DNA from: Schmidtea polychroa
Taxonomy: Eukaryota
Length of the DNA: 64,000 bases
Direction of reading: 5' to 3'
NCBI GenBank assembly: GCA_044892525.1
Contig: CM097885.1
Location: 139,500,001-139,564,000, forward strand
Positions 21,058-47,653 of the stretch are shown piece after piece (within the stretch, counting starts at the first letter, position 1; each line of letters opens with the position of its first letter). The translations under genes and the position numbers were made by a program. The notes under the pieces were generated by a model, which made no database searches, was not told the origin of the DNA, and saw only the letters and a program-made list of their open reading frames with translations.

Positions 21058-21170
21058 TTATATAAAATTTTACTAGTTCGGGTTACAGTCCCTTGAATAC
21101 TTTTACAATACTTTAATTTTTTTGTTTGGGATATACGTCCCGATTTTTGTTTTTATCTTTTTATTCACCC

Positions 21171-23808: not shown

Positions 23809-23893
23809 TCTATAATTATATGTACAAATAGCTCTTATCGATACAGGTTCGATATTTTATTTACAATTATTTACATTTTAAGCTAGGTTTGGT

Positions 23894-24253
23894 TTAGGGT
23901 TCGGAAGAGTCGGCTTCGTGTCCGCTCTCCTCTCTATTCATTAACCATTCCGACCAGTCTTCTATTTCTGTCTGTTCTGCTTCCTCCATCATTCTGTTTA
24001 GTTCAATTTCCTGTCTACGGCTATATTGGGTTATCCTCTCTATCTCTCTTTGCATTTGTTCGATTTTCAACCTCTGGTCTTCAATTATCTTCAAATAACT
24101 AAATCCTCTATTCATACTCTCGATTAGGTTTCTGTGCATCGTCAATCCTTGTTCTTGCAAATTGGACACTAATTGTGCTAATACGGCACATTGTTGCTTC
24201 CATAATTCTTCAGTTACTGTATTGTGGTTCATTTCGTTACTTCCTTGATCCAT
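23894..24253 (-). CDS. Accessory small coiled-coil protein, 119 aa
   Basis: Intact ATG ORF between the polyprotein stop and TRAF, with an acidic C-terminus. Confidence 0.65.
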   Translation of the reverse strand: MDQGSNEMNHNTVTEELWKQQCAVLAQLVSNLQEQGLTMHRNLIESMNRGFSYLKIIEDQRLKIEQMQREIERITQYSRRQEIELNRMMEEAEQTEIEDWSEWLMNREESGHEADSSEP

Positions 24254-24412
24254 TCTTAATTATATACACTTTTCAACTCTTATTTAAAATTAATTTTATT
24301 TTATGGTTCCCGTTATTGTATAATATTAATACCGCGCTTATATAAAGATATCGTGCTGTTATATACATAAGATATACTTACTTTTTACAATTATATACAG
24401 TCATATTCCTTT

Positions 24413-25414: not shown

Positions 25415-28400
25415 ATTTGTCTCTATTTCTTTGTTAGTGAAAGGTAGGCATACCCTCTGTTTTCCATTATTCGGTTTTTCCTCCTCTTTGGTCTTGGTTC
25501 CCGGGCTGTTTCCCTCTCTTTTCGTATCCAAATCCTTGTTTTCCGGTTTATCCTCTTCCGGTTCTCTTTTCCCTTTATCCTCTTTTCGGCCTTTTCCGTC
25601 ATTGTCATCGTGTTTATCTCCCCCGCTGTCGTTTAAAATGTCGTCCCCGACATTTATATCGTTCAATAATCTGCGATATCCTGTTAGCACTCTGTTTCTT
25701 GCTAATTTTGCTTCGAATTCAAACTCTTTTCTACCCGTTGCAGCATGTCTCTTTCTATTCCATTCTTTAACTAACTCTCTCAATTGCATACGACGATGTT
25801 TCCCAATTCGTTGTTGCTCGTTCTGATTTTTCGTGAATTTTAGGTCTTCTCTATTTAATACTATTAAAATAATTTTAGGCGTCCCCCCCTTAGTTAGGGT
25901 ATTCTTTACCATCGCATTTTCTCCGTTTTCGTAGAATTCGTTTACATTTATCGCATATTTATTATTTTGTGGTACTCTCCAGGTTAATAATAATTTCATT
26001 GCTTCTAGATTTTTCCGTACCGTATTCCATTGAAACTGAGATGTGTTTTTGCACATATTTTCAACTTCTTCTTTTGTCGCATTTTTGAAAATAAATCTGA
26101 TCATTTCTAAGTTTGGCTGTATGGTTGCCCAGTCCAATGTGGAGTTCCCTTCGTTTGATTTTTCGTCTAGTCTCGATCCTGATTGATGTAGGATGTGGAG
26201 TGTTTTTGGGTGTATTTTCGTTATAGCTGCATACATCATGGCGGTTTCACCTTGTTCATTTTTCGTGTTGGTTTCCTCGCCCATCTCCCCAAGGATTCTC
26301 ATGATCGTTATTGCTCTATTCTCTTTTGCAGCTAGTATTGCTTGTTGTAGAGGTGTTCTGGAATCCTTTGTTGCCATCGTAAATGCTCGAGGCAAGAAGG
26401 TTTTGATTTTCCCGATATCTAAACCCGTGGTTTGATCTCTTGCGTATGTGTGTACGGCTTTTATTATTTTTGACAATATTATTTCGTCTGATAGCTCTAG
26501 CATTTCCTCGAAGAATACTTCTTTTGCTTTGCGTATTATTGCCTCTTGATCTAGACTCATTGGTTTTGTTTCGATGACGTGGTTTGTGACCGTTTGGTTC
26601 GTTGTTGACTTTGATTCCCTCGGTTTCTCATACCTTATTTTCGTTTTCTTTCCGTTTAGATTATTGATTCGTTCCTCTGCTGTGAGTATTTGGATAATAT
26701 CCAGGTAATTCTCGCGGATGTTATTCATTGTGTCCATCATATATAACACACTTACCGTTTCCCAATATTTATTTCGTACCTGAGTAATGAATTGAAATAT
26801 TGATCTTTCGAATGTGTCGATTCGCTTTTTTAATAACTGCTCCTCTTTATGATTTGTGAATTTTATCCCTCGTTCTAGTAATTGATTCGGAATTTCGAAT
26901 AAATGATGTCCTTTCATAGCTTCTCTCATCAGCGTGTTCTCTCCTCTCGTGAACGCTTCGTTTACGTTGATCATATAATCGTTTTGAATTGGATTTCTCC
27001 ATGTAATTAATATTCCGGTAATTGTCGTCAATTTTTCTTTGATCGCTGTTAACAATCCATCATACATGTTTCCGACTTCTCGATTGTCCTCATATGATAG
27101 TAGTTCCATCAATGACGTGAACGCCTCGGTACTTCTCCCTTCGATAGCATGATGTAGAGCGTTTTTCCGCTCGTGGTCTTGTGTAGTTATTTTCGATCCA
27201 GTATCAAGTAATGCGGTTATAATGTCTTTGGTTTTGCCTCTGTTTGCTGCTATCATTAATGGTGTGTAACCTTGGTTGTTTGTTTGTTCTGTTGATCGCT
27301 TGCAGTCGTGAAATGCTTCTATTGTTTCTAGTATTTGCTCGTTGTTACCTACTTTCATGAGTTTGTGTAATGGTGTGTCTCCGTAATGATCTGTTATTGT
27401 AAATAATATTGGCCATTGGCTTTTGACTACTCGCAATAATGGGTGTGTCCTTTCTCTATTTGCATAGTTCTCGATCATCGTCAATAATCCTCCTAATATT
27501 TCGAAATCTAATCGATCTTTTGCCCATCCAGGTATTTTAATTTTTACCTCTTTTACAATCTTTTCCGCTTCTGATGGTTGGATACCCAATCGTCCAGTGA
27601 TCGGTTCTGCGAGTTGTTGCATCATGTTCATTCTGTAGGTTTGCGAACGTGTGGTTAATGTACGGCCTTCTGGTTGACTAGTGGCTGTTTTTGGAATTGA
27701 TTTGCATCGTGCCACGTTTACGTATATTGGCCTGGTAAATGGGTTATTTACCAATTTCACTCTTACATTGGTTTCGCCTACGAATAAGATCTCATATGGT
27801 CCTTTTCCGTTGCGTTGTAACTTTTTTGTGGTTCCTGGAATTAATTCCGGGGTTTCTATCATTACCCAATCACCTGTTTGAAACGTATGTTGCTTCACGT
27901 TTTTCTTTCGATCGTGTAAATCTTTATAACTTTCCTGGTAGAACTTGATATTTAATCCCGCAGTTTCCCAAATTTCTTGCATTCTTTCCTTGAATTTCGT
28001 AACATAATCATCGATCTCCATATACTGCGATATCGGTGGTTGGTATTCCAGGTCCATTGGCATATTACACTCTCTTCCGTACATTAATTTGAATGGGCTC
28101 ATTTTCGTTGATGCGTGAATCGACATTCTGTATGCCATAAGACATAGGTTTATATATTCGTCCCAATCTCGTTGGTGACGGTCGACGTAGTTTGATAACA
28201 TTTGTATAAGTGTTCCATTAAATCTTTCCGTCATCCCATTGGTTTGAGGGTGGTATGGAGATGTTCTTAGTTTTGCTATTTTGAAGTAATTTGTTACTTC
28301 GCTCATTATCTCACTCATAAAATTAGTTCCCTGATCGGTTAATATCTGTTTTGGTGTTCCATATCGGCAACATATCTCTTCTACCAAAATTTTTGCGATT

Positions 28401-31400
28401 GTTTTAGCTTTTTGGTCTGGCATCGCGAATGCTTCTGGGAATTTCGTAAGAAAGTCTGTGATCACTAGAATGTAAACGTTTCCTTTATCTGACTCTGGTA
28501 GTGGACCAACTACGTCCATGGATATCATTGTCATTGGTTCTATTGGTACTGGCATTGGCGTTAAAGGTGCTTTCCATTTCGATCCCGTATTCTTCCTGGT
28601 TGCACAAGTTAGACAATTTTTTACCCATTCGGTTACATCTTCAGTTAACGTAGGCCAAAAATATTTCTGTTTCATTCTTGCTAACGTCTTTTTCGATGAC
28701 ATATGTCCTCCCAATCTCCCATCGTGATATTGCGTTAGTAACTCTTTTCGTCGGTTTTCCGGTATACACATTAATCGTTTTTCCCCATCCATTATCAGCA
28801 ACCAATCTTTCTCTATAATATATCGGTGTCGGTGTTTATCCATATGTTCTTTTAATTTTTGGTCTTTCGCATATACATCTGTCTTTCCGGTTTTTACATA
28901 ATCGATAATTTGTTTTAATTCCGCGTCCTCTTGTTGGTCCTTTCGCAATTGACAGAAATCCAAATCTTCCGCTACTATTAAGCATATGCGTTGCATTTCT
29001 GAATCCACCAAATCTGGGAAAATAAATCTTGACATACAATCGGCGTTGGCATTTGCTCTTCCCGCTTTGAATTTTATAAATGGGGAGTATTCTTGCAATT
29101 GCATGGCCCATCTCATCAGTCTACTGGACGCTTCTTTATGTTGCCCTAACCACACTAATGGTTGATGATCGGTGGTTATGCATATCTCATGTCCCCATAG
29201 TAAATATCGGAAGTGTTTGATAGCTTGTATTATAGCCAATGCTTCTCGTTCTGTTACTGAATAGTTCTTTTCGTGCTTTTTGAATGTTCGACTGTAATAC
29301 CCGATTACTCTCTCTTTTCCTTCATCGTCTAATTGTCCCAGAATCGCGCCTGCCGCGTACCCGCTTGCATCCGTTGCCAATAGAAATGGCTTCTTAAAAT
29401 CTGGGTGTACTAGGATAGGTGCTTCGATTAGTTTATCTCTCAGCGTTTCGAACGCCTGTTGTTGTTCTTTTTCCCAAATGAACGAAATATCCTTCTTTAC
29501 TTATTCCTGGATTGGTTTTGCAATTCCTGCATAATTTTTGATAAATTTGCGATAGTATCCGCATAATCCTAGAAATTCCTGAACTTGGGTGACAGTTTTC
29601 GGTGCTGGACATGTTTTTATTTTCTCAATGTTTCTTGGATCTGGCTCCTTTCCTTTAGCTGACACTATGTGTCCCAAAAACGTGACTTTTTCCTTTGCCC
29701 AATCGCATTTTGATGGTTTGAGTTTGAGTTTCCACTGTCTTAATCTAATAAATACGTTTCGGATATCTTCCAGATGTTGTTCAAATGTCGCTGAATAGAT
29801 TAGTAAATCATCAATATATACCATACATTGTTTGATTCCATGGGTGACAAAATTCATACACCGTTGAAATGATGCTGGTGCATTGGTCAGTCCGAATGGC
29901 ATTTTCCTGAATTGATATAGATCTCGTCCCAACGTGAAAGCTGTTTTCTCTTTGTCCTCATCTTTGACTTTAATCTGCCAGTATCCACTTTTTAGATCTA
30001 AAGAAGTAAAATATGCTGCCCCTTGCAACATCAATAACATCTCATTGATGTCCGGCAATGGATAGGTATCTCTCTTGGTTACTGCGTTTAACTTCCGATA
30101 ATCGATACAGAATCGTTGGGTGCCATCTTTCTTTTTTACCATGACCACTGGGAATTGCCAGGGTGAGCAACTTGGTTCGATTACTTTTGCGTCTAGTATC
30201 TTTTGTACTTCTGTTTCGGCTATTTCTTTCTGCATTTCTGCTAGCTTGTATGGTCTCAATGCAATTGGGGTTTCGTCTATGAGTGGTATTGCATGTAAGG
30301 TAACATCACATGTACCCAAGTCTAAATCTGAGATGGCGAATATATCTTTATATTCTACCAACAATCGGTGCAATTTTTTCTTTTCATCATTCGTCAACAA
30401 CATACTATCTATTGTCCATAATTCATCATCTTTGATCATCTCGTTGGTCACTTTCGGTAATTCTATGTCCATCATTGGGGTCAATCTTCCCAATTTTTCG
30501 TTCTCATAAATGATTTTGTCTTCCTCTTCGAAATTCGTGATGTTGAGCGGTATCACTCCTTCTTGGTTTATTGTGATTATTTCCCTTGCGAGTGGTAACT
30601 CTCGTCGCTTTTCAAATGACTTGCTTGGTTCAAAGATAACTTCTCCTTCCATACCCGTATCCACTTTTATCTGACAAATCATCTGCGATTTTGCTGGTAC
30701 TATTATTTTTTCTGGACATCTGATGACTGCATTCATTTTGCATATTCTACCGGTTTTGTCTTTTAAACACATGGTTGTTAAGTCAATTACGACTTCTTTT
30801 AACAATTCTGGCATCAAATCCGTTCCGATTATGCATGGTACGCTAAGGTTTGGTATTACTGCCAAATACGTTTCGATTTCGTTGTCCTGGTATCTCAAAG
30901 TAGTCCACCATCTTCCGACCACGTCCACTGTTTCTTTACTACATGCTATGATGTGAATTGTTGTTGATTCGATATCTTTCCAGTGTTTACTGGGGATTTG
31001 ATTAATCGCTATCGCTGATACATTAGCTCCGGTGTCTATCATAGCATTGGTTTCTTTACCATTGATTTGAATCATAACTGTTACTGCTGGACCTCCAGGT
31101 AGACTCATCGCTGCTATTGTTCTTACGTCATCTGCTTGATCTACACTTTTGGTACGTCGTGTTGGCATATAATGCATACCGGGTTGACTCGGTAATTGCG
31201 GATACATATTTTGTGTCATGGTCAAAGCTGCTTGTGGTCCCACGATATCCGGTGGTATGTAGCTTCCATTGGCGATCCAGGTATTTGTCTTTTCCTTTTC
31301 CCAATATGGTGCCGTTTCCATTGGTTTTTCGTTTGGGTTTCTGTTTGGATATAAACATTTGTCGTTCCCGTTAGCATCGTCGTCACTATCGCTGTTAGAT

Positions 31401-34400
31401 GATTGGCTTCTAAATCTGTCCAAAAATTTTTGCTTATTCTTTTTCAATTGTCGTCTTGTTGCTTCGTCGTACATTACTTTCCGGAATCGTCTGCCTACTT
31501 CCTCGTCGGTTCCTTTAATCTTTGTTAGTATTTTAATCAATCGCTTTATCCGATGAATGTCTTTTGAGTGACCATGTAATACCATGGTTTTAGCTAAAAA
31601 TGGTAGAAAGCCTACTATCATTTTCCAATTTACTTTCTTTTCTCGCTTGTATATATCAAAACACGCTAACATTTGTGTTAGTATTACCCTGACTATCTGA
31701 ATTATGAGTATGATCCCTAATATCCCGGCCATCATTTGTCCAAAAACTAAGAATCTTCCCCACATTGCTTTCATCATGTTTGACGTGGCTTGTTGAAAGT
31801 GGTCTGGCGATAGTAGCAGTTCGTAATTCGGGCCTGATTGATAATTTGTTCCCCCCGTTATTGTAACCATATTTGACAAAATGGATTCTCGTCTGGCTGG
31901 GAAGAGTACGTTAAGTCGTGCTGTTTCTAGATCTTCTGGGGAATACATACCACCGTTTGACACGTCTATAGGTTTGAAATCTAGCTCTGTGGCGAGTTCT
32001 ATTAATCCAAATTTCTTGGGCTCCTCGGATATGGTTTTTCCCGGTAACATCATCCATTTTCCATCGGGCCTTTCATACAAAGGTCCGTATGCATTAGAAC
32101 AGTTAAAGAGATTTGGGTAGAAACCCACTGGATTCATAATTCTAGTGACTGGTTGGACGAATCGATTTTGTCCTTTATAACGGATTTCTAATTCATTTGC
32201 ACATCTCTTTTCGGGTAGTATAGATTTTTCTGGCATTCGTGCATACGTCTTGGTACACTGGTATGTGTACATTACTTCTCCTACCATTCTACCAAAATGT
32301 CCATCCGGTAATGGGAGTGATGGCATCGTGTTATCTGGGTGCGTTATCGCAATAGCTAGCTTTGTTTTCAATATTTCTTTATTCAATGAACAATCGTTTT
32401 GTATCAGATCGTAATATACTTTTTGCAAGGTCGTTTGTCCGCGATGAAATAGAAAATCCATTTTATTATTTGCATATAAGTATAGTTTTACGTCCTCCGT
32501 TGCTATCTTTCCCACTGCTCTATCGATTATTTGTCTCGACATATAGATGCCTGCGTAATTGGTTTTATATACTATACTGTCACATTTGGTGGTTTCTTTC
32601 TCTTTGATAAATCTCATACCTAGATCTGGATCGTCTGTGATTAATGCTGTTGGTGTCTTCTGCGTTGAAAGTCTCTTTTCTCTGGGAGATGGTGGCATTG
32701 GTTTTCCATTTCGCATTCTCACTCTGTCGTTTCCATCCTCGTCGTTCTCGTTCTCATATATTTCTCCTTTTACTTCATTGAACAAAGCACTTTTTAACAG
32801 TTGGAGTCGGCATTTTTGGGTATTAGCTTCATAGATTATAGTTGATACTCCTGTCCTACATACGTTTTCTGTAGCTCTACACGCTGGGTTGGTCTTCATT
32901 TGGTAATTATTTGCGTCAAATTGCGCTTCGTATTCCTTTAGTTCAACCGTATAGGACTCAATCACTACTACCCCCGATATTACTTCGCCTCGGATCGTAT
33001 ACGTACCTCCGTTACATGACCCATCTGATGATTTTACTTTTCCGGATACGTAAACGCTTTCGGTTTTAATCATTCCAGTTTGTCCGTGAATCGTCACTCC
33101 GTTATGCATTTTTAGCGCTCCGGTTCTAAATAGCTATTTACAGTCCTCTCGTTGTATTGATACGATTTCTTTATCCAGACCAGGTAGTATAAGAGTCGAA
33201 TACGAATATTGTCCACAGTAATATGCGAGTACCTTTTTTGATACTACGCATTCCCTTGCTTGCGTTCTGATGAAATCTGATTCTTGATATACATGGTAAG
33301 TAACTTTTGTTCTTACTATGTCTAATTTGTTGGGTGATGCTTGTCTGCATTCTTCTATGTCTCTCAATGAGTATTTATCTCTCATTATCATATTATCACA
33401 ATCGTAGATGGTAAAACCCGTTGCTCCACTGGTGCACAACATCCATATCATCATAGTCATCATTAACGAATTTATTGATGCTTTTCTGCTTGCGGGATCT
33501 TTCATCGGTAGTTCCCATTCTAGTTCATTTAACAGTTTTTTCAATCTAACTTGCATCGACCTTTCTTGCTCATTTTTTCGTGGCGCTTGTATCAGTCTTT
33601 TCCATCCTCCGGCACGAATAATATGTGATTCAATAGTATTCTCTATGATTGAAACGGTCATTTCCACATGATTTGCAAACTGTTTATTTGGTATTTTCCT
33701 CGCGGCTAGTCCCATCAAATTATACATCAAATACGTGATTACCACTAGGTGATGTTCGTCGTCATTTGCGTTCGTCGTGAGCTGTTCAATCACTCTCTTT
33801 GTTTCATCCCAGTCCGTTTTGGTGGTTTTCGTTTTCTCTTTGATTAACTTTGGGATTATCCCCGAAACGATGTGCCATAATTGTCTAGCTTCCGTACTGG
33901 CTACTTTCCGTTGCCACAAACGTCTAAGTTGTGGGTTTGTTATTATTAACATATCTTTTATCAATTCTCGTATCCATTTTTCTCCTCTTTCGATCGTTGG
34001 TTGGGCTTCCTTTAGATCCCATACTATTTTATCCAATTTTTCTAATCGAACTTGCCCTTGTTCTTGCTTTAATTGTTCTTTGGTTTTGAACTCAGACTTT
34101 TCTCCTTGTTTCTTAGGTCTTCCTTTTGCCCGTTTTTCCATCATCGTTCCGGCTTCTCTGGTATTTTCGTAATTCGGATTTCTTTCGTTATCCGTTCTGG
34201 GTAATGAGCTATCGTTATTTCTTAGCCACTCATTCCATTCGTCTATTATTTTATCGGTTTGACCTTCTGGTGTTACTTTCGTTGGTTCTCTTTGCTTCTG
34301 GAATTGTTCATCCGTTTCGGTTTCCGTAGTATTGTCGATGATTTCTTTGATGTTCAGTTTCGTTGGTTGTTGATAACTCGTTGATGGCTGGTTATTAGTC

Positions 34401-37400
34401 CACATTTCGGCTCCTGTCGGCCATCTCACTAATAGCGGTGATCTTTCTCCTGGTTCATCGTCACTATCTTCCAGGATTATCTCTTCAACTTCTTCAGTTT
34501 CATTAGATTTACTTGGTGCTTTGTTCGGACTTGGAGTACTCAAACTGCCTTTTGTTGGTTTAGTAATTTTACTTTTCCTTTTTAACGGTTTCCCCAACGT
34601 TTCGGCCATTGTTAATACATTTGTCTCTTCCAATCTCATGGGTGTTATTCCGACGTCTGCATTATCGTCTAGTGATTTTCCGAATAGTTGCAGATGGAAT
34701 GGAGTTTCATATGCTAATTTCTTTTTTAATTCTCTAATTTTTGTTGTTGGATGCACCTCTAGTTCTTCGATGCTCTTGTCCGGGTACTTGATTCGGATGT
34801 GATACCTCTCTTGGGTGTCTTGTGCCCATTCCTGATTTCTCCATTTTCGAATAATTTGTTCTAGCTGTTCTGGATACCATTCATTATATTGCCGGTATTC
34901 CTCTATTGCCTTTGCCATTCCTCTCAGATTGTGGATGTTCTCTGATGTCTTTAAGATGATGTTAGCCAACGCTACTACTTGGCGTTTTTGATTTTTCGCT
35001 CCCATTGCTAAGATATCGCCTAATTGTTTATATCTTTCTGTCTCTTCTCGTTCTCTTGCTTCCGTCGCTTCCTCGCCGTCCATATCAGCATATTCACGTT
35101 CCTTTTTCCTCATTGCATGAATATGTCTCGCTTCATTTTCGCTTTCTGATGTGACATCCGTCTCGCTTTCGTCATCTGATGTCTGTCCCCTTGCTTCCTC
35201 TTCATATTCTGGAGGTTCCTCTTCTTCTTCCTCCGTTTCACTTTCTGTCTCACCAATGTCTGTTTCTACGAAGATTCCTTTCCGGATTTCCCATTCCTTA
35301 TTTTCAGCATTCCACACTCTTTCCCATGGGGTTCGTCTGCAGGATCTGGTGCTTAATTTCGTGATTTTTCCTTGTAGTTCTTTTTCTTTTAACCATTGTT
35401 GGTGGATTTCAATTATTTCTGTAGATTTCTGATATAACGTTTTCATCCGGTCTCGTATTTCTTTTTGATAGATTACATCTCTTGTTCGAAATTCATCCAT
35501 TGGTACTATCCTGATGATCTGATGATTGTCCCACATACCCAATTCGCTTAACGAGGTGTCGTCTTCTGCTCGTAATATTATTTTATCGTACATCATGACT
35601 ACATCATCCACCATACCATCACTACTTTCGCTACGTACCTTTTCCGTTATCTCTTGGTTTATCTTTGATACCAAGTCATCCACTGTACTCTGATTGCTCA
35701 TTTTTATTCGTCGTTTTTCTTCGTTCGGTAACCATATGGTTATTTCCAACCTCTGTGGCTGGGTTTCTTTCAACCTTCCATATTTGTGGATCAAATTTAT
35801 GGTTCTCCAATCACTCATCCGGAGCATTTCTGTATCTCGCAATCGGCTCATTAGTTCGTACATGGCTGGGGCTCGTCTGGTGATGAGTAGATCCCAGTTG
35901 TCTTCCACTTGTTCTTGAATTTGTTTGATCAGCTTATCCAGGTTTCGTCTCAGAGTACATTGTTTTATTTGTTCTAATTTCAATTTGATATTAAAATCAT
36001 ATTCTGCCTTGGCATCTTTAGCCCAATCGTAAAGGTTGGCTGGTTGTTTTTCTTTATGCAACTTTAGTATTTGCGTTTCTCCTGGCCATATTAGTGCATC
36101 TACTAAGTGCATATCTGGTTTAATCTGTTCTCCTTGGTATTGATACAGATATTCTTTCTTTCTCGAACTTCCCAAATGTTCTCGTATCCAATCGAAAAGT
36201 TCGTCGGTGACTGTATTTTTTATCCACATTCTTTCAAGTCCTCTACTCGTTCCGATTTTTATTACATACCGCGTGGTATCGGCCTGCTTCATTTTTCCCA
36301 TATACTTTTTTATAATTGATTTTTCTTCGTTTGGTATTAGATCTTTCTCGTTTCTTTCCAATTTCATCACTTTTTGCACGAATCGCCTGAATGGTATTAC
36401 GTCGATGAACTCTTGGTTCCTCACTACTACTGGGAGTATTTCGGCTACCTGTTTTATCGCTTCCTCCCTTGCTTTTCTCAACTTTATTTCGATATCTTCG
36501 TCTTCACTTTCACTGGTTATCTCGCTTTCGCTTTCTTCTTCTTTGATTTCCCCTTTTGGAGGTTCGCTTATTTTATTCGGCTGTAGTATTTCTCCACCCA
36601 AACTACTTACATAGTCTTCTTCTTCGTCTGACGATGCTACCTCTTTTGTCCTTTTCATCATATTGATTTGCAAATTTCTCATCCTTGGTACTCTCTTTAG
36701 TTTCTTTCTTTCGAATATCGTTGTTTCTTCTGATTCTAATTCTTGTAGCATTTGGTGGTTTAGTTGACTGGTTTGTTCCTTGCTCTTGTTATTTTCATCT
36801 TCTGTCTCGGCTTTCGCTTTATTATGTTCTTTTTCGATTTTATCTTTTATCTTTTTCCAGAATATTTTCTGAATTCTCTGGTTTCCTTTTAAAATCGTGG
36901 TTGAATTCTCTGTTTTCATTTCCGTTGTTGTTTCTGTTACCTTTTCTGGTTCAGTCATGGGTACTACCCTTGGGTTTTTCCCGTAATTGTAGCAATACTG
37001 GCTTTTCATGTCTTTTACTAACTTCATCATATTAATTCGCAATGGTTGTTCTTGTCGTTGTTGGTTGCGTTCTTGTTTTATCCTCTCTTCCTCGGCCTGT
37101 AGTCTTTGCCATTCTTGTACATGTTGATGCACTTCATAATTGTTGAGATTTTCGGTACTCCTCATCATACGTATATTCTGGGTTTGTTGTGGTGCTGATT
37201 CCGGTCTCGGTCTCATCATTTGTTGCATCATCTGTTTCATCTGCGAGATTTCCTGCATAACGTTCATTTGTTTTCCTTCGCTAGGGTTACTTTGTCGTTG
37301 CGGATTCGCCATATAATTATTATTTCGCTGTGGTGGTCGTTGTTGTTGGCCCCTTTCTCGGCAATCTCTGGAGATGTGACCTGGCTGACCACAGTTAAAA

Positions 37401-38266
37401 CAACCTCTCAATTGGCATACATTTTCGGTATGTCCACGCCGTCCGCAACGATTACAATTTGAATTTCTATAGCAATCTCTGTCCCAGTGTCCTGGTTTAC
37501 CGCATGTTCGGCACTGCTTGTTATCGTTCATATTTCGTCGATTATTGAAATTGTTCTCATTATTCGGGTTGTTACGATTACCATTATTCCCATTTGATCG
37601 TCCTTGTGGTGGTTTGAAAATTTGGTGCGCTCCTGGTATAAATTGATTCATTTTCGGTTCTTGATTGTTGTTATCTCCGTTATCCGCTTTCGCTATTGCT
37701 GTCATTATCCTTCCCTCCTCTTGCATAATATTCATTTGAGCTGGAAGGTGGAGCTCGCATCTTGTAGCCCAATCTATGGCTTCCTCTAATGTTTTGCACA
37801 TTTGACAACCTACTGAGGCTCTTACTTCTTCTCGGCGTAATCCCTCTATGAAATAACCGATCAGATTTTCTTCGGGTAATTTTCCATTCATTGCTTTCTT
37901 CGCTAATCTCCGCAATTCACTGGCATATAATGTTATCGATTCGTTTGCTCTTTGTTTCCTATTTGCTAGTTCGCCCAACGCCTGGTTGATTGGCTTACTG
38001 GCTCCGAAGGTTTTCTTCAGGAATGTTTTGATATCTTCCCACTTTTCTAATTTCGTATCTCTCTCTTTAGTTTCTAAATATACTTCTAATGCGCTATCGC
38101 ACAAAAACAACGGCATCCTTTTACTAATTGCTTCGGGTGTCCATCCACATACAGTGATATAAACTTCAAAATTAGTTATGAACGTTGCTAACTTGTTTGC
38201 ATTTCCGTTGAACGGTTCTCCTCTGAACTTTTCTTTATACTCGTCGGTTTTTACGACATTCGTCAT
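24413..38266 (-). CDS. gag-pol: Single Gag-accessory-Env-Pol-accessory polyprotein frame (4618 codons) with two internal stops (33134-33136 TAG, 29501-29503 TAA)
   Basis: ORFs 33134-38266, 29501-33109 and 24413-29380 share one frame. The gaps translate without further stops: EDCK*LFRTGALKMHNG and KPIQE*VKKDISFIWEKEQQQAFETLRDKL...PFLLATDAS. Confidence 0.92.
26090..26370 (-). other. Ankyrin repeat block 2
   Basis: SRTPLQQAI, NEQGETAMMYAA, NEGNSTLDWA. Confidence 0.8.
27100..27400 (-). other. Ankyrin repeat block 1
   Basis: DHYGDTPLH, NNQGYTPLMIAA, DHERKNALHHA. Confidence 0.88.
27700..28760 (-). other. pol: Integrase (H2C2 zinc finger, DDE core, GPY module)
   Basis: H-X5-H...CLTC; ISMDVVGPLP, LTDQGTNF, NGMTERFN; GPYEI. 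Confidence 0.97.
29030..29500 (-). other. pol: RT connection and RNase H
   Basis: ATDASGYAAGAIL, NYSVTEREALAII, TDHQPL, NANADCMSR. Confidence 0.95.
29504..30330 (-). other. pol: Reverse transcriptase
   Basis: RFCIDYRKLN, LDLKSGYWQ, MPFGLTNAPASFQR, and catalytic YIDD at 29807-29818. Confidence 0.98.
30740..31100 (-). other. pol: Retropepsin aspartic protease
   Basis: AMIDTGANVSAI (DTG at 31028-31036) and CIIGTDLM. Confidence 0.95.
31570..33463 (-). other. env: Envelope-like glycoprotein resembling chuvirus (Jingchuvirales) G, with own signal peptide and TM
   Basis: Signal MMTMMIWMLCTSGATG; motifs YCGQYS, GSCNGG, LYANNK, DCSLNK, GEVMYTYQC, CANEL, FVQPVTRI, GGMYS, FPARRESIL; TM FGQMMAGILGIILIIQIV. 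Recognised by motif recall, not by search. Confidence 0.75.
33590..34040 (-). other. Divergent Bcl-2-like helical domain
   Basis: Ends in BH2-like HIIRAGGWKRL, preceded by a BH1-position hydrophobic helix HLVVITYLMYNL. The NWGR motif is absent. Confidence 0.55.
34605..34810 (-). other. Ubiquitin-like domain 3
   Basis: YHIRIKYPDKSIEELEVHPTTKIRELKKKL...LQLFGKSLDD matches the beta-grasp pattern. Confidence 0.65.
35500..35755 (-). other. Ubiquitin-like domain 2
   Basis: LEITIWLPNEEKRRIKMSNQSTVDDLVSKI...LSELGMWDNHQIIRIV. Confidence 0.55.
36057..36271 (-). other. Ubiquitin/SUMO-like domain 1
   Basis: YVIKIGT...LFDWIREHLG...YQYQGEQIKPD...LIWPGETQIL. Confidence 0.45.
37361..37513 (-). other. gag: Three CCHC zinc knuckles (nucleocapsid)
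   Basis: CRTCGKPGHWDRDC, CNRCGRRGHTENVC, CFNCGQPGHISRDC. Confidence 0.97.
37760..38266 (-). other. gag: Gag capsid region
   Basis: Retrotransposon-gag pattern RKQRANESITLYASELRRLA...YFIEGL...KTLEEAI upstream of the knuckles. Confidence 0.85.
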
Positions 38267-38925
38267 GATTGGTGTTCTAGATTCGTCTGTTTCTTTTAAA
38301 TTGTCTAACGATGTGACTAAACTTTGGGCTGATAATTCCTCGGTTGACGTTGCTAAACTATTAGTGATGTCGGACAGACTTTCTCTGCTTCGAGATCGAC
38401 TAGGGGTGTATCCGAGATTTTCTTGGTCAAATATAGGTACTTGATTGGTTCTTCTTGATCCTTGCGATATTCCTCTTTGCTGTTTAATAGATCGTCCTCT
38501 TTTGAGTTGTTGTAATTCGTCTCCTGAAAATAATACGTCTCCTGGCTTACTTGAAGATCTAAGATTGGGTTTATCCGTGATTCCTTTCTTACGCTTCTTG
38601 GTAATTAGCGGCTATTGAATTGGACGAGTTCGGTTCTGATTGTGTTTCCTTCGATAAATATTCTGTATGGATCTGCTACTGTGATTCTGAGGAGATTCAC
38701 TAGTCCTTGACAGATGGCTGCTAATATTATGAGGTTGAATATATCGATGATTCGTTCGAAGTTGGAGATATCGCTATCTGTATCTTCTTCCGTTCTGGAG
38801 TCTTCCGGTTGCTGTGTCTCTCGGTGCGGGTTCTGAATGAATTTATTCTTGGTCGATTGTCGATTTCTTCGAATTCCTTTTGTGCAGGTTCTGGATTGTC
38901 TTGGTTGACTGGATTGGTTTGATAT

Positions 38926-38945
38926 CTAAAATGAAAAAATGATCT
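38926..38945 (-). promoter_or_regulatory. Candidate 3' splice acceptor upstream of gag
   Basis: TTTTTTCATTTTAG|AT in A and TTTTTACATTGTAG|AT at the homologous position 1607 in C. Confidence 0.5.
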
Positions 38946-39630
38946 CGTGTTGCATTTGCTTACACGACTTCATCATTCTTTCAACAACGTTCGAACACAG
39001 ACACCTTTTAGGTTCTGTTTATGCTTCCCCTATTTTTTATGCAATTACTTCCGCGGGTTATAATCTCCCATCAGCCCGAATTTTTCGTCGATTTTAAATT
39101 ATCTATATGGGGTAGTAACAATTATCTATCAAGTCGTAATAATTATCTATTCGTTATCAATTATAGTAAAAATAGGTCGTTGTCGGTCTCTGCTTATTAC
39201 CCCCCTTCGTTTTCCTATTCCTTTTGCGCTGTTGTCGCTATTTTACTTTTCATATTTACTATTATTACGCTCGGTTCTACTCTGGAACCAATAAAATGCA
39301 TTTTCCCGGTTTAACCAAAAAAAATATTCCGTAGAGTTTCTCTACCTCACTGGGATCCCTTTAATTAGTTGGTTACTTTCCTCTTTACTCATTATCATCG
39401 TTTCGCCTATTCTTTATTTTCCATTATCTCTTTAATTCGTTTCCTTCTTCCCTTTCCTTTTTCATTATAATCTTATTATCTTTTCCACGAGCTCGTTTAT
39501 TTCCTCTCTAAACTCAAATTTCCGTAATTACATTCAATTTGTTTCTAGCTAGCTTTAATATTCCCTTTCTCTATTAATTCAGATATTAGCTCATTGTAGC
39601 TTAACTGCTATCTCTCGCTTTTCTAGGCCT

Positions 39631-40030
39631 TTACGACTGGCTGGCACTATTCAACAGCTCAATCTTCCTCCTTCTGATCGGTTGGACTATTCGACAACTC
39701 GATCTTACGACTGGCTGGCACTATTCAACAGCTCAATCTTCCTCCTTCTGATCGGTTGGACTATTCGACAACTCGATCTTACGACTGGCTGGCACTATTC
39801 AACAGCTCAATCTTCTTCCTTCTGATCGGTTGGACTATTCAACAACTCGATCTTACGACTGGCTGGCACTATTCAACAGCTCAATCTTCCTCCTTCTGAT
39901 CGGTTGGACTATTCAACAACTCGATCTTACGACTGGCTGGCACTATTCAACAGCTCAATCTTCCTCCTTCTGATCGGTTGGACTATTCAACAACTCGATC
40001 TTACGACTGGCTGGCACTATTCAACAGCTC
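39631..40030 (-). repeat. 74-bp x 5.4 tandem array of alternating 34/40-nt hairpin subunits in the leader
   Basis: Units start at 39631, 39705, 39779, 39853, 39927 and 40001. There are no unique spacers, so it is not CRISPR. Confidence 0.95.
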
Positions 40031-40181
40031 AGCTTTAACATTCTTTACTATGCATGCTTCTACTTCTCTTTTCTTCTTTTACTCAAGATTACCATTTTCT
40101 CTGTCTATTTTTAATTTGTTGACTTAATCTTTACCGCTCGGAAGTGTGTCCCCTTTCCCCCCTTGCTCAAAACGCACGACG

Positions 40182-40251
40182 ATCGCGATGATCCATTTCT
40201 ACATTGGCATGGTGATCAGTCATGCCGCAGAAACTTCTCATCATTTGCGAT
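40182..40251 (-). ncRNA. Conserved leader stem-loop with palindromic UGAUCA apical loop (DIS-like)
   Basis: Four nested helices with compensatory changes relative to 8303-8372. Confidence 0.65.
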
Positions 40252-40594
40252 GGTACCCCGCCCTACGCTCCTCACTTAGGTTGATCGGTTATCCCCTCCC
40301 AATTGGTTTTATCGTATGATAGAACGTACCGCCCTAAGGTGGCTCGGCTTGTACCCTTACAGCCTATATTGGGACTAATTCCACGTTATTTCGGTTTTCT
40401 TTTCGTTTGATTCCAAAACAAAGTTATAAAATAAAATTAAAAGCCATAAATTACTCAGTTCACAACAAAAATTTATTCGTCATAAAAATAAAATTTAAAA
40501 CTTTAATAAAATTTCACACAACAATTACATTCATTCTCATTCAATTGTCAGTATCAATTTGATGTTCATAGATGTCATTGTAGCTGTAACAGTT

Positions 40595-41131
40595 TTATTC
40601 ACCATAATAAACCATATGAGTTTCTTTTATTTCATGCCTACATATCGTACATCGTTTTAAATCGTTCACACATTCTTCGCAGTGACTGAGGTGTCCACAC
40701 GGCAAAAACAGTACGCGAATAGGACGAAGTTTACAAGCACGACAAGTTCGTAGTAGAGTCAGTTTTTCTTGTATTTTCCGCTCGATTGTATCTGATATGG
40801 TATTTAGTGGATCTTTTATACGTTGATAATCAAGATTTAATGCTGGGTGGTTCAATCTCTCTTGATACCATTGATACACGGTTTCCGGGTTTACCTTCCC
40901 CTCTGGGTGACTTAGTCCTGTGGCTAATAACATGTCGTTGGGGACGGCTGGTGTTTGCCCGATTGCTTGAAGTAGTATGATGTTAATTCTTTCTCTTTTT
41001 TGTGTCAGCGTTTTAAGGGAGTCATTCTCGATGTTTATGAAGTTGATTAGTTGTTGTATCTGGTCCACGAATTCCGTCATGTCTATTAAAAAAAATGTTT
41101 CAGTAATATATGACTTCGTTTCGTCAAACAT
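40595..41131 (-). CDS. IAP-type C3HC4 RING protein (no BIR), first ORF after the PBS
   Basis: CRACKLRPIRVLFLPCGHLSHCEECVNDLKRCTICRHEI at the extreme C-terminus, as in IAP E3 ligases. Confidence 0.85.
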   Translation of the reverse strand: MFDETKSYITETFFLIDMTEFVDQIQQLINFINIENDSLKTLTQKRERINIILLQAIGQTPAVPNDMLLATGLSHPEGKVNPETVYQWYQERLNHPALNLDYQRIKDPLNTISDTIERKIQEKLTLLRTCRACKLRPIRVLFLPCGHLSHCEECVNDLKRCTICRHEIKETHMVYYGE

Positions 41132-41381
41132 TCTCTTTTCTAACTCGTTATCATTATTTTACTTTTATCTTATTTCTCCATCATTAAATTTGCTTTATTT
41201 ATATTTTTAATTTTATTATTTTCTATTCGTGATTTATAATAAGATTCGATAAGTATTAGTCAATTTGCACTCGCTAACCCATTGAAATCACTGATCCCCG
41301 GTGAGTTCACTCTATTCGACAGAAATTCACTCAATAACATCCTTATCCAGTTTACACTAGTCAATGGAAATTTCAATCTAA

Positions 41382-41399
41382 ATCCCGGCTGAGCCCCCA
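41382..41399 (-). promoter_or_regulatory. Primer-binding site (tRNA-Pro-like) of element A
   Basis: TGGGGGCTCAGCCGGGAT has 16/18 identity to the canonical tRNA-Pro PBS. A 7-nt spacer TAATTTT separates it from the LTR. Confidence 0.85.
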
Positions 41400-41833
41400 A
41401 AAATTATGTTGCGGGTACACTACTCGGATGACCCCTTTCTAGTGCAACTTTAGTCTAGAGGATGAATGCCACCTCGATTTCGCCCATCATTTATTTGGTC
41501 ATCGCCGAGCGGGACCCGTACATAACTTACACTCCAACATAGCACCCGTGAATTGCTTCACGTTGGAACTGTGCTATGCCGGCGAGACGCCAGTAAGCAG
41601 GTGAGCCAGCTCCTTCGGACTACTCCTTACTGAGGCCTCGACTTCCCAACCCTGACTGCCGATAGAAGGACTTACGTCTACTCATTCCGTCGCCCCATCG
41701 CAATATTTCTAGCTGAGTTTACCAACTGACTAATGCTCCTCATAATTTTATGACTCTCAATACCATTTACCAATTTCAACTCAACTGTCTTAAGATGAAC
41801 ACAAAGAAAAAAAACGTATGCAGACAAAAATGG

Positions 41834-41839
41834 TTTATT
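41834..41839 (-). terminator. AATAAA poly(A) signal copy in the 5' LTR
   Basis: Same site as 15594-15599. Confidence 0.5.
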
Positions 41840-41973
41840 ATTAAGATTATCACACAAATATATCTAACACCTATACAATAAAGTTCACGACAACGGGAAA
41901 AGAGACAAGGTAAAATGTTATCAGACAATGTTCAGGTCAATTCAGAGAACGAAGACTTTTTACGGGGAAGTTC

Positions 41974-42723
41974 TCATTTCTCCCACTCCGAGTCTGCCAA
42001 TAGATCTTCCAAATCGAAAAACTCAGAGGCGTTTTCCTCCCAGGTAACACCAGCGGCGGAGGTGATTCGCCCTGAGATCACTGATGCTAAATCGATTGCT
42101 GCAGGAGGGTTGATGACTTTGATTGGATGATCCGACGATTGCTGGTTCTGTTTGGCGGTCACGCGTTCCCGCTGTTTCTTTTTGCGTTCGGCTCTCGATA
42201 ATTGCCGACGCTTCGGCTTCGCTGCCGTTGGATTGGTCGGGGGTGCTGCAGAGGTAGATGCCATCACAGGTAACGCTTTACTGGTTCCGGTAAAGATGAT
42301 TTCTGGTTCTTTGGGTGAGAGTTCGGTCTCTACGCACCCATTGCAGGACTTTCCGACTGGAGAAGAAGACCCGCCAGAGATATCATGATGCGCTGGGAAA
42401 AGATTACTGGATTCATTAATTGGGATCTTCGCGATCTTCCTTGTAGTTGCTGCCTGGACGTATAATTTGCGCAGCGCCTCCGACTGCTCTTTTATCAGGC
42501 TCCTCTGCGCCCGACTCTCGGAAATCAACGCGTCTCTACAGTGCTCGCTTCGGTGCAGCTTCTTCTGAACCCCCTTCATCTGGGTGGGACTAAACCATGT
42601 CCCCTCCAACTCATCTATCCTTCTTTTGTGCTTTCCGATTTGGGCCTGGAGCTCTTTGATAATTGAATTCTTGTCGGAGTAAGAAAAACAAGGTCGAAGA
42701 ACGGTCTTGGAATTTGGCAACAT
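41974..42723 (-). CDS. LTR-encoded 249-aa protein (coiled coil, TWFSP motif, basic Arg-rich motif)
   Basis: Intact ORF with homologs in LTRs B and C. A splice acceptor lies 10 nt upstream of the ATG. Confidence 0.75.
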   Translation of the reverse strand: MLPNSKTVLRPCFSYSDKNSIIKELQAQIGKHKRRIDELEGTWFSPTQMKGVQKKLHRSEHCRDALISESRAQRSLIKEQSEALRKLYVQAATTRKIAKIPINESSNLFPAHHDISGGSSSPVGKSCNGCVETELSPKEPEIIFTGTSKALPVMASTSAAPPTNPTAAKPKRRQLSRAERKKKQRERVTAKQNQQSSDHPIKVINPPAAIDLASVISGRITSAAGVTWEENASEFFDLEDLLADSEWEK

Positions 42724-42733
42724 TTTTGAGTGA

Positions 42734-42770
42734 CTGTGGAAAAAAATGAAAAATGAAAATAATTAACTCA
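42734..42770 (-). promoter_or_regulatory. 3' splice (or trans-splice) acceptor for the LTR ORF
   Basis: TTTTCATTTTTCATTTTTTTTCCACAG|TCACTCAAAAATG. Confidence 0.6.
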
Positions 42771-44870
42771 ACGGGAGTGTCACCATCGGACCACCTTCAT
42801 ACTTTATTGATCATAGACAAAAATATGGGTTTACCAGTCAAGACAAGTTCTACTGTGCGATGGATCCTCCTACCCTTTGGGTCTTAATCATAAGAAGGTA
42901 AATCGATCAAACCAGATTTCGCGCCAAGAAAAGAAGATATTACCATTAGTGAGAGAAATTCTAGGTCGATGAAAATGATTATTTATTTAATCCGCTTGAA
43001 GTCGTTACTTCACGTTTACCGAGAATCGTGTTAAGTTGTTGACTTCTTCCCCCCGTACGAGTGATTTTGATGGGTGTATCATATACTGGGGTCGAGTGAC
43101 TATCTATGAAAAAAGGGGGTCCATAATGTCCGTTGATCAGTTCCTACAGGATAAACGGAAAGTTATTTAATTTCTTTTTTATTATTTATTCATTCTCTCT
43201 AATTACTCACATATGTGTTTTACCTGGTTTACATAATATTTATTTAATAATATTCGATATTAATGTTAATGATAATCATGTCAAAATGAAATAATTTCTA
43301 TGCCATTCATGCTAAGATAATAAAGAGAGAATAATCATAATTATGATCGGGTTTATCATTAAAAAATATTGTCTTTATGATATCTGAGCACGGTATCAAT
43401 GTGAGCTAGTAGCCGACCATTCCTGCTAGGTAGATAAGGAAATGTCAGCCCGGTGGTTGACTATTAATCCGGAGCGGTGAAATCTGATAGCTGTCGGTAG
43501 TTTAATTGGCATGTTCGATCTAATTTTACATGAGTAGATGCGTGTGTGACTTTGCCTACTGTACTTGGCTACTAGGTAAGTCTGCAACTGGTGACGCATG
43601 CAAGGTGCGCTTTCACACACTTAATTATACTACAAATGCAGGCGTTGAATGTTTGCATGATGGCATTCTCTCAGAATTTTATCCACCGCGTAATCACTCA
43701 CAATTCTACGGCATATGGTGATGATTTACTAATTCTCACCGGATTATTGAAAAAATTATAATTATCTGTATTGCAAATGTTGGATATAGCTTGCTCCAAG
43801 GGTGGATTTTTCGTCTTTAATTCCTCAAGCCTAGTTTATCAATCTACTCTCTAAGTGCTGGAGGATTTTTTCCTATCCCTGCTGGGTTGCCAACCTCATG
43901 AAATACTGGAATTTTATATTTAATTAACAAGATCATCGGCTAACTTGAAGAAATATATTTTCTTGGTTCGAGTTGGTTGCATTTTTCATTGTTAAATTAT
44001 TTGATGCCAATAGTTTATGTAATTATGATAATTAATTGTATGTAAATTCTTTTATATATAATTCTAAAAATTTATGATAGCGAATCATTTTATGCAATTT
44101 AAACTTTTATTTGGAACAAACTCGTTTTTTGTAATTCTGAATAACTTTTTGGATTAAATCATTTTACATGGTTCTACCATTTATTTACAAGCGGTCATTT
44201 CGGGTAATCCTAATACTTGTCTAAAGCAATCTACTTTGAACTCCCTTGCAACTATGTCTTTAAGAGAACTTTTAGATGAACGGAATAACAGTTCAGAAGG
44301 TCATAGGCTAAAAATCGTCGGAACAGATTCTGAGTGAAAAGTATGAACATCGAAGATATGTCACAGATAGCCTCACTAAGGTTTGAACAATTCTTGACGC
44401 ACAACTTACATTGATGATGAAGAAAAAAGTTTTCTTAGCAAAAACGACATTCGAAAACGATAGTGTGACACCCTCAATCACTGCGCGAATACATCAAAAT
44501 TCTCCGATTCCTTTATTACATATCTTTGTTTTCAATCACTACATGACTATCAATTTTCTGCCACCATTTACCTATAGATTTTAGTCGCACCTTCAGCAAT
44601 TGGACCCGTGAAGAAGCCCTCACATTTCGGCCCAATCTAGCTGCGTGATTGAAATACCCTATGTCCACCGGTGGAGCTCCCGAAGGCACCTCACACCATG
44701 ACATAGAGTATCTCAACGCCACGTTTCTCGCAAGATTGAATAGTCTCCAATAATAATTCATAAAAATTAATTCATAAAAGATCAATAATTCTTAACGAGC
44801 AAATCATTTATTATTAAGCAAACTATTAATTTAAATAGAGCATTCGAAAATCAAACGAAAAGAAAAACCC

Positions 44871-44902
<32 letters not shown>

Positions 44903-47653
44903 AAATATTATTAAACTATACGCATTACTTAAAAATTCAAAATAAGCAATCAAAAATCCTTACCGAATGATTGATACAAGTATGGGCTGAGTCGAAAAGG
45001 GTACTATGTCGAATCAGTTAATGCTCGAATATCGTCTAGTTCTGTAAAAATCTCTTGAATCTTGGAATTGTCCTCGTGAGTTATCGTGCGTTAGTTGCTG
45101 GAGTTCTGTTCTGTCGTAGAATAGATTTACCTATTGAGGTGGTTTGATTAACAGCAAGCTTATTTAAGTTTCACTTACCTATTGAGGTGGTTTGATTAAC
45201 AGCAATTGTTATGTTTTTAATGCCTGCTTATATATTAATTTTTTGTTTGCGCGGACCAATTAGAATTGAGTACCGCTTAATTTTATTAATTTAATTTATT
45301 TTCCTTGTTTTTGAGTTATTTCTTCTTATTTTCTTTATTAAAATTATGTTTTTATTTATTTTCCTTAATTTTCTTATTATTTACTATATTTTACGTTGTT
45401 TTCCGTCATTCTATTGTCCTATTTAATTTTTCTCATCTTTATATTTTTTTGTTTTAATTCTTATTTTCTAATTATTGTTTTTCTTATGTTTTATTTTATT
45501 TTATTTGTCAATTTATTTGTTTTTATTTATTTATTTTTTATTTTATTTTAGTTAAGTTTGCCCTAATTTCCCAACTACCCTTCGACTCAGCCCAACACAA
45601 ATAAATACCCATAGTGCTTCACATCGACATAAGAGAGTTGGCGTGGTAAAGTGCAGAGGGCTAATATCTACCTACTCAGGCTAATCAGTGAGGGCACATT
45701 GATCAAACCGCCATTGGTGATTATTTTATTCAATTAGGATAATTATTTGTTTCAGTTAATTTTAATTTAATTTAAATTAATTTCTTATTATTTTTTACTT
45801 TTACCCTGAGTAGTCCGGTTATCGCCAATAATTTTATTGGCCTCCTTTTTCGATTATTATGTCTTCTTTTCGAATATTGGTGTATATGTTGTAATCTAAT
45901 ATGTTTCTTCTGCAACTGCTTGGGGTTTTCTTTTCTATTTAATTTTTTAATAACGTGTTTTTTTTAATTAAGGTATTTTATTTTTATTTTGATTAACTTC
46001 TTGCTTTTTGACTATCACTTTGACAGATGTCGGCAATGATTTTTATTGTCTATCAATGGTCTGACCCCCAACAACACATGGAACATCACCGGAATATTAC
46101 AGCAGACATTTACTGTGAACAATTAGACTAGCTTTGACATATTTACGGCCAGCATTAGTCAATGGCAAGAGATATTCTAACAACAACATAACACAAGTGA
46201 GCAAAATGAGTGGAGAGGAAATGCATAAAGTAAAAGATATTTTGTTCTATAATTCTAAGAAAAAGGAAATAACAAAACAAATAAAATTAAACAAGGAAAT
46301 TTTTAATTAACAAGTACAATTTAAAAGTAGAAACATAAAACAAATGGAAAATGGAATTACATTACAGCTTGTCCGAAATAGCGAATAGACAACCGGGAAG
46401 TCGCTAAACTATAAAGGGGAAAGTTGAAATAAACTTGCATATCTCGACAGCTACCCGAGATAACAGGCCATAAAAGTGAAACACAACTTTGATTAAATGA
46501 CACAAAAGAGGATCAAGAGAAATTACAAAAAAATTATTAAAAACCAATATTTTCAACTTAAAGAAATTGGATCAATTCTACTAATTATAGAAACCAGAAG
46601 CAATAGTTACGTGGTTTAGAATTCCCAGTATGCTACAGGCGTGCTATTGTTACTGAAGGGCTGCAACAAGTATTCAGTCACTGTTGTAACATCGAATTAT
46701 TTTGTGTCATTGTGAATTGCTATTCTATAGAAGATTATATTGTTTGAAATTCGTTATTGCTATCAATTAAGATATGCTTTTGTATCACATCAATAATTCT
46801 TTTATATTTCAGCAACAACCCAAACATATTATATACCGTTCTCAGGAACACAACTTAACCCTTTAATTGCGGAATTAAATTTCATAAAGTCAGGAAACGT
46901 GTCAATTATCCGTCAACAAAAAGTTAAAGATATCATTGTGATTTGAAACACGTGTAGACGACCAAGTGAACATAATACATTTAATATATATTAAAAATAT
47001 CTTTCCCGAAGGGTTGTTAAAAGTAGAGACAATGGTCTATTCAATAATATTTGGATTTATCCGCATCCAATAGGTGTAAAAACAGAACGTTTAAGAATTT
47101 CTAGGATCTCAATTCTGGCAAAAGAGCTTTCTTTGTGTCGAAAGACCTTATATTTTTATGATCGAAATTACAAATCTTATTATTTACCGGTACTCTTAAT
47201 ATATTAACTAAAGACAGTAACGTCTTAATAAAAAGATGAAAACATTAATAGGACAACAAAATGAGGTTCTTAATCATCCACCAAGCCTGAAAAATGTTCT
47301 TGGATCATTCCATGGCGAATTATCAAATTTCACAAAGGTCTGGCTTATAATATGGGCTACTTTCTCGAATTAGAATTAAAATTGTATTTATTGAAGATTA
47401 TTTCATTAAAAATGTAACCTACCAATGACAAACTTTTGGAAAAAAAATTTGTTACTTAATATTGTATAATAAAATATGAAATAAGTGAAACAACAATTAT
47501 AATTAATGTATTTCAACACTAATCAACCAACCTTTTAAGCACAAAAATTGAAAACTATAAAGAATTACGTATGCAAAAATAACACGCATAAAACTTTATT
47601 AATTTTGTTATATAAATGCTTCAAAAATATTACACAATTTATTTACTTTAAAA

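Follow-up and report, generated by a model that had tools for sequence, protein, structure and literature searches.

The stretch of Schmidtea polychroa DNA analysed here (64,000 nucleotides, called the window throughout) contains an open reading frame of 249 amino acids (ORF A, 41974..42723, minus strand) that lies within one long terminal repeat (LTR), the 5′ one, of a giant retroelement. This element, A, occupies 30.4 kb of the minus strand, with a 5′ LTR of 4191 bp (41407..45597) and a 3′ LTR (15167..19359) that are 99.4% identical and accompanied by a 4-bp target duplication; the 3′ LTR carries a second copy of the gene (15734-16483), frameshifted at 16320. A primer-binding site lies a few bases off the end of the 5′ LTR (41381..41399, minus strand), and the internal region (19592..41158, minus strand) contains a RING ORF, a polyprotein, and TRAF-like and coiled-coil accessory ORFs.

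The polyprotein of A consists of Gag, a Monjiviricetes-type fusion glycoprotein, PR, RT, RH, IN and ankyrin, with the glycoprotein (PF24664) in frame between PF03732 and PF00077, and a B-family copy holds Gag knuckles, MATH and PF24664 within one frame. The A polyprotein has in-frame stops at 33134 and 29501; in the B copy that was examined, the corresponding stretch has no stop. Cargo of the Burro type was detected in the form of MATH/TRAF, RING and ankyrin sequences, and no BIR domain was detected in A. The internal coding content of A matches the published description of Burro, or GYPSM1, which in the excerpts available gives a length of ~30 kb, multi-kilobase LTRs, Gag CCHC knuckles, a mononegavirus-like fusion glycoprotein between gag and pol, and MATH/TRAF, RING and ankyrin cargo (PMC6431247). 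Therefore A, and with it the LTRs B and C described below, can be assigned to the Burro-type giant Ty3/gypsy elements known from planarians, an assignment that rests on the match to this description.

LTR B (2158..7806, minus strand) is a solo LTR with its own 4-bp target duplication and is nested in the leader of element C; other B copies are paired ~30 kb apart around a Burro-type interior, and a full B element measures ~35 kb. LTR C (9525..14111, minus strand) is the 5′ LTR of an older, decayed lineage, is followed by the same primer-binding site as A, and has a leader and gag that are 76-81% like those of A. This primer-binding site has 1,092 exact matches in the genome, a lower bound. An earlier note on this DNA had described A, B and C as belonging to three different element families; they are instead lineages of one element group, and its observation that the LTRs are otherwise largely unalignable holds, blastn giving, outside the ORF, nothing but AT-rich matches.

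Other features of these elements include a 74-bp tandem repeat in the A leader (5.4 copies, 39631-40031) and an AG just before the ATG in several internal accessory ORFs of A (41083, 23810, 24255 and 22229), a pattern that suggests a shared spliced leader. No polypurine tract was found before the 3′ LTR (19360-19400; loci L092, L097, L107 and L129); its place holds a conserved 7-bp hairpin and a GC-rich run that are common to A, B and a further lineage, D. Inside LTR B lies a captured piece of a host gene in antisense orientation (4179-4815, plus strand), with a weak match to CFAP95 and 32 genome matches, several of them paired ~31 kb apart; three small gaps in this piece (two GT-AG, one AT-AG) are joined in putative RNA contigs from up to three runs, X1 not among them.

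A conserved gene family inside the LTRs

The motif TWF[ST]PxxMK occurs four times in the six frames of the window, namely in both A LTRs, in B and in C. The B homologue, B2 (2524..2963, minus strand), is a coding exon that begins with TG directly after an acceptor and has no ATG of its own; the frame had previously been drawn as 2524-3009, and its coding conservation begins at the acceptor (2963) and not at 3009. The C copy (10138..10847, minus strand) has a damaged start and a frameshift near 10,400; it had been credited with only part of the basic motif described below, yet nearly the whole motif is present in another frame after the frameshift. A decayed fragment of a B-type LTR gene also lies at 206-352, beside an N stretch.

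The A and C proteins are 36% identical (E 4e-36). The pairwise match of A to B is weak (E 3e-6), and at profile level the two match with 96% probability (E 4e-9), scoring 29.9 bits, where 200 shuffles reached at most 6.8 and four other element ORFs at most 0.3. The A-B homology resides in a short core, and B sits on a very long branch of a tree that cannot be rooted. The claim that all three LTRs encode a homologous TWF(S/T)PxxMK protein was thus borne out, for A and C by pairwise comparison and for A and B by the profile and its shuffle control. The gene is also carried by further lineages, D and others: the back-translated core motif has at least 3,035 exact matches in the genome (reversed control, 0), and 150 of 189 loci with a match to the N-terminal profile have the U5 signature described below within 1.5 kb, a count in which some places are repeated and in which decayed copies and truncated sequences are among the loci without the signature. 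It is likely that many of the genomic copies are solo LTRs.

The A protein comprises a CxxC motif in most copies, a helix (residues 15-40), a TWFSP hinge, a second helix (46-99), a basic helix (177-197) and an acidic-hydrophobic tail. In the structure model, which is weak overall (pLDDT 61.8, pTM 0.25) and confident for the three helices, the first two helices are predicted to break at the TWFSP motif, and their heptad positions are hydrophobic. The CxxC, together with His and Cys residues, is conserved in A, C and D, and the tail in A and D; B has neither. The proposal that A and C share PCFxC holds for the 3′ copy and most other copies (PCFSC), and fails for the A copy at 41974..42723, which reads PCFSY. 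Lineages beyond A, B and D also keep the basic helix; in A it has 6 Arg and 4 Lys in 17 residues, and the motif is Lys-rich in A, B and D.

Homology searches agree with the earlier suggestion of an unrecognised family: no ordinary host family and no fold was matched in Pfam, the PDB or a profile scan of 1.84 billion representatives. For the A protein, Pfam gave no match, the best PDB sequence match had an E of 0.39, Foldseek against PDB and BFVD returned nothing at E 0.001 with the weak model (pTM 0.25) as query, the Atlas gave no match (best 0.85, unnamed), and word-indexed homology searches found nothing. The profile scan returned 17 matches (P0001-P0017), which lack the CxxC; 4 of the 16 aligned have 10-12 Arg in the 17 residues of the basic helix, and one of the 17 shows a weak Pfam REV match below the cut-off (E 0.0013). 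Fourteen of the 17 are fused to 14 different unrelated host or transposase domains, and can be interpreted as gene predictions into which an LTR exon was drawn, either as prediction artefacts or through real exon trapping by intronic LTRs. The host half of one homologue is 94% identical to the S. polychroa genome and two LTR halves are 28-44% identical, and the source of these sequences would be a close relative with distinct element lineages. No free-standing host homologue was found among the 1.84 billion representatives; the genome searches score the best 150 candidates and could hide a lone host copy.

The LTR gene is under purifying selection. In a genome search with A, 134 of the best 150 of 6,765 candidates have no stop, a sample biased to intact copies. 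For copies that are distinct and unbroken (39 of A, 17 of D, 20 of B2 and 23 of B1, a second gene in LTR B; broken copies left out), dN/dS is 0.08-0.34 across divergence classes, compared with 1.2-3.2 in other frames and 0.20-0.37 in the antisense frame that shares third positions. When each sequence is used once per gene, dN/dS is 0.07-0.30 in 15 of 16 pairs (the remaining pair is saturated), so that the dN/dS check that the earlier note called for gave values far from 1. Constraint is strongest in the core helices. Gaps number 0 in the ORF, 42 upstream and 19 downstream, the first figure being circular because only intact copies were compared. The value near 0.1 between subfamilies at dS above 1 contradicts the view that the ORF is a captured host gene fragment or a chance open frame carried passively in the LTR. 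That view, which can point to the unrelated captured host piece in LTR B, and to young copies that were picked as best matches with open frames and may be open merely from youth, also finds no free-standing host homologue among the 1.84 billion representatives, and is highly improbable.

The LTR as a transcription unit

Of 56 LTR loci, a count that includes paired LTRs, 51 have a promoter motif (an inverted CCAAT or E-box, plus TATA) within their first 800 nt, where 12% would be expected. In A, a conserved inverted CCAAT plus TATA (45228..45260, minus strand) predicts a start near 45200 and is followed by predicted donors at 45178 and 44963 (44963..45178, minus strand), the former bounding a predicted 48-nt first intron (45178-45131) that was not seen in RNA. 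A donor follows the promoter motif by 50-80 nt in A-type and B LTRs; none was matched in D with this pattern. Upstream of ORF A, a pyrimidine tract and acceptor AG (42734..42760, minus strand) would open an exon at 42733, with the ATG at 42723, and by eye 55 of the 56 distinct A and D copies have a YAG 0-10 nt ahead of their ATG. An AATAAA (41834..41839, minus strand), then a U/GU-rich stretch, follows the gene, and a donor-like GTAAGT block (41655..41679, minus strand), ~160 nt further downstream, is kept in A, C and D. The placement of the ORF between an acceptor and an AATAAA stands for A (AATAAA after the stop in 38 of 39 copies) and B (20 of 20), and less well for D (just 10 of 17). The Burro LTR is therefore laid out as a complete transcription unit, with a selected ORF, a conserved 5′ promoter, and donor, acceptor and poly(A) motifs. 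This agrees with the idea that a solo LTR may keep the gene as a self-contained unit: B is a solo LTR with an open frame, and the LTR holds promoter, donors, acceptor and poly(A) signal.

The conserved promoter precedes the gene by ~2.5 kb, and the poly(A) signal follows it. Because this promoter is near the 5′ end of the LTR, the gene is probably located inside a 3-5 kb R region and not in U3; if the same promoter makes genomic RNA, R would be ~3.4 kb in A and hold both intron and gene. Known R regions measure 15-250 nt in the excerpted account (PMC12789967), a range that a selected gene in a 3-5 kb R would exceed more than 10-fold. This known range also speaks for the alternative that the gene is in U3, with genomic RNA made from a second start near the poly(A) signal (giving a short R), the 5′ promoter serving the LTR gene only, separate RNA pools, and a protein that could be a structural or packaging factor. 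BARE is reported to use distinct RNA pools (PMC3735527, in part), and a short leader would fit with the donor-like block in U5. Nevertheless, eight aligned A copies have, by eye, no conserved TATA between stop and AATAAA, and the conserved promoter is at the 5′ end, so we consider a U3 location improbable.

The LTR gene as such is very probably spliced. LTR B has a promoter (E-box plus TATA) and first exon (7078..7168, minus strand) that would end in A at the proposed junction, 7078. Its B2 exon lacks an ATG, and acceptor AG is followed by TG in 53 of 53 loci and 15 of 15 contexts; the last base of the first exon is A in 15 of 16 B loci (the exception is L203), compared with G at all 17 donors found in A-type LTRs, counts that come from related and not independent loci. 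Since the first exon ends in A and the B2 exon begins with TG, joining them would complete an ATG, and the B2 start codon thus appears to be made by splicing (A|TG). Between these exons lies B1 (3281..3649, minus strand), a second LTR gene of 122 amino acids with its own acceptor inside the B intron, which is under selection, unrelated to B2, and ends in an AT-hook-like motif that is invariant in 6 of 6 aligned copies; Pfam gave nothing beyond a weak AT-hook. The B LTR in L060 lacks B1, and L198 carries a tandem duplication of it.

Other starts for B2 were considered and rejected. A coding first exon meets early stops in L091, L100 and L102, and an 18-codon exon near 6725-6672, present in 5 of 5 close copies, has lost its donor and frame in 6 of 6 distant B copies with the block. 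A trans-spliced leader ending in AUG, known for flatworms, would enter B2 in the wrong frame.

Three putative RNA contig sets and one unlabelled set were compared with window positions 2100-19400. The ORF bins of A and B are both covered by sets X5 and X6, and X7 does not cover the A ORF; the predicted A intron has little or no cover, which does not count as a result. Among the 15 of 131 contig joints listed, none falls at a predicted acceptor, and three putative RNA contigs among those listed cross the predicted B sites unspliced; these may represent genomic RNA, pre-mRNA or DNA. A search of the genome for spliced retrocopies with three junction patterns gave 0 matches, which has no bearing on splicing. 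The earlier proposal of a spliced protein has strong indirect support in the conserved signals and, best of all, in the A|TG of B; no junction was found among the 15 of 131 joints listed.

The LTRs also share a candidate RNA element in U5 (41536..41580, minus strand), a stem, 8-nt bulge and stem common to A, B, C and D. It covaries: among 47 variants there are 2-6 pair types at stem positions 2-7, and of the positions left free by a search that required five pairs, 6 and 7 pair in 47 of 47 and 46 of 47. The A U5 as a whole is not unusually stable (z -0.41). The bulge ends in CCAA, which is complementary to the first bases of the LTR and to the primer-binding site, and may have a part in priming or strand transfer. 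The B intron contains a further block of ~170 nt, whose folding z ranges from -0.8 to -5.8 across 6 copies, and Rfam returned chance-level matches only, and no family, for the A LTR. Pairing of the LTR with sequence before the 3′ LTR was discarded as a candidate, being present in the A copy of the window, partial in 2 A2 copies, and absent in D and B.

A proposed early nuclear switch and its alternatives

Young LTR pairs keep the intron, so the RNA that was replicated must have been unspliced there and must have escaped both splicing and the first poly(A) site. In the excerpted literature, complex retroviruses solve the problem of intron-containing RNA with Rev-like proteins (PMC3856414), and foamy virus uses U1-mediated suppression of a poly(A) site (PMC3694450), which the donor-like block near the Burro poly(A) site recalls. 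By analogy, a regulatory function like that of Rev, Rex or Tat is plausible for the LTR protein, and the specific reading that we prefer, tentatively and at a little below an even chance, is a nuclear RNA-binding protein that is made early, acts as a switch in favour of unspliced, read-through RNA and is Rev- or Rex-like in its action. The default product would be a short spliced mRNA that starts and ends within one LTR (5′, 3′ or solo) and makes the LTR protein, whereas full-length RNA would have to retain the intron of the LTR and extend past the first poly(A) site. The protein would oligomerise through its coiled coil, enter the nucleus, and bind an RNA structure of the element through its basic helix, candidates being the U5 stem-bulge-stem and, in B, the structured intron block; once bound, it would promote unspliced, read-through RNA and so bring about an early-to-late switch. 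We presume that the basic helix resembles helical RNA-binding peptides.

Several properties of the protein argue against such a switch. A CRM1-type export-signal pattern is absent from the A protein encoded at 41974..42723, and no conserved one was found across families; in other members the pattern occurs at unrelated places, including the tail in P0003 and P0012. The Lys-rich motif of A, B and D may be an import signal only, and the tail of A and D, which B lacks, looks more like an acidic activation motif, a class that we take it to resemble. These features would suit a transcriptional activator of the LTR promoter comparable to Tat, Tax or foamy Tas, in which the basic helix serves import and nucleic-acid binding, the tail activates, and in B the AT-hook of B1 provides DNA binding. 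The hydrophobic-x-x-hydrophobic-hydrophobic pattern of the tail is kept in A, D and other lineages, the CxxC and His/Cys residues are conserved in A, C and D, and the AT-hook-like motif of B1 is invariant in its 6 aligned copies. However, B2 has neither tail nor CxxC and the library homologues lack the CxxC, no conserved hairpin has been shown at the predicted start, and the conserved RNA element is 3.6 kb downstream, so an activator appears somewhat unlikely.

We regard as slightly less likely still an anti-silencing or host-modulating accessory, a coiled-coil adaptor directed against PIWI or chromatin silencing, or one that alters stem-cell behaviour like other Burro cargo. Burro is reported as a SMEDWI-2 target (PMC8532177, in part), protection of stem cells is reported for its IAP cargo (cited in the excerpt of PMC13465017), and the 28-44% identity to library homologues, against 94% for a host gene from the same source, could reflect conflict. 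This divergence may instead reflect merely old element lineages; in addition, dN/dS is low throughout, with no positive selection visible at this resolution, and no host domain is recognisable.

Extended to the whole element, the switch reading would make Burro a complex retroelement with a retrovirus-style early/late switch that evolved outside the Retroviridae. Its multi-kilobase, intron-bearing R would encode an RNA-binding regulator, in B chosen by a splice-made start codon against a second gene, with an AT-hook, and this regulator could be supplied in trans in planarian cells by LTRs that number in the hundreds to thousands, solo LTRs among them; we hold this broader picture to be possible but doubtful. 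Because Burro is an abundant element under PIWI control, with reported effects on planarian stem cells, a nuclear protein encoded at >3,000 loci could bear on work on silencing and regeneration. The LTR exon also contaminates gene models, as illustrated by the 14 of 17 library homologues fused to unrelated genes, and a selected gene within such an R region would raise the question of how the element gets past its first poly(A) site and keeps its intron.

Comparison with known systems

The excerpted description of Burro and GYPSM1 names no gene inside the LTR (PMC6431247). No report of a gene in Burro LTRs was found in the literature covered; Grohme 2018, Jurka 2007 and Lee 2026, with their supplements, fall outside that search and may hold a prior annotation. 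Within the same literature, complex retroviruses, and not Ty3/gypsy elements, are the ones described as having regulation in the style of Rev or Tat.

With Rev, Rex and Rem, as described in the excerpted source (PMC3856414), the LTR protein shares a small product of a (here predicted) spliced RNA, a basic helix, oligomerisation-type helices, structured element RNA, and the need to export intron-containing RNA. It differs in having no sequence or fold homology to them, no conserved export signal, a larger size and a long coiled coil, and in being wholly encoded by the LTR of a Ty3/gypsy element. The LTR protein may work like Rev, and is not a member of the Rev family.

MMTV sag and HIV nef also have coding sequence inside an LTR, and the comparison that the earlier note drew with them holds to that extent; it is less apt for position, as sag and nef lie in U3, upstream of the start site (PMC12789967, in part), whereas the Burro gene lies downstream of a conserved promoter, whose start is predicted, and has a predicted intron of its own. 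Plant LTR retrotransposons carry additional ORFs, gene23 of Grande for example, that are likewise family-wide conserved accessory genes of unknown origin, some of them nuclear and proposed to be regulatory; the excerpted account places these within the internal region, for the most part between pol and the 3′ LTR and in many cases in antisense (PMC7264820), unlike the sense gene in the Burro LTR. In Drosophila gypsy, the env ATG is completed at a splice junction, as AT|G and in the internal region according to the parts of these sources available (PMC2585583; 10.1101/2023.08.03.551782), whereas in Burro B it would be A|TG with both halves in one LTR. Among accessory retroelement genes, the Burro LTR gene is real, ordinary in its host element, and unusual in its position and design.
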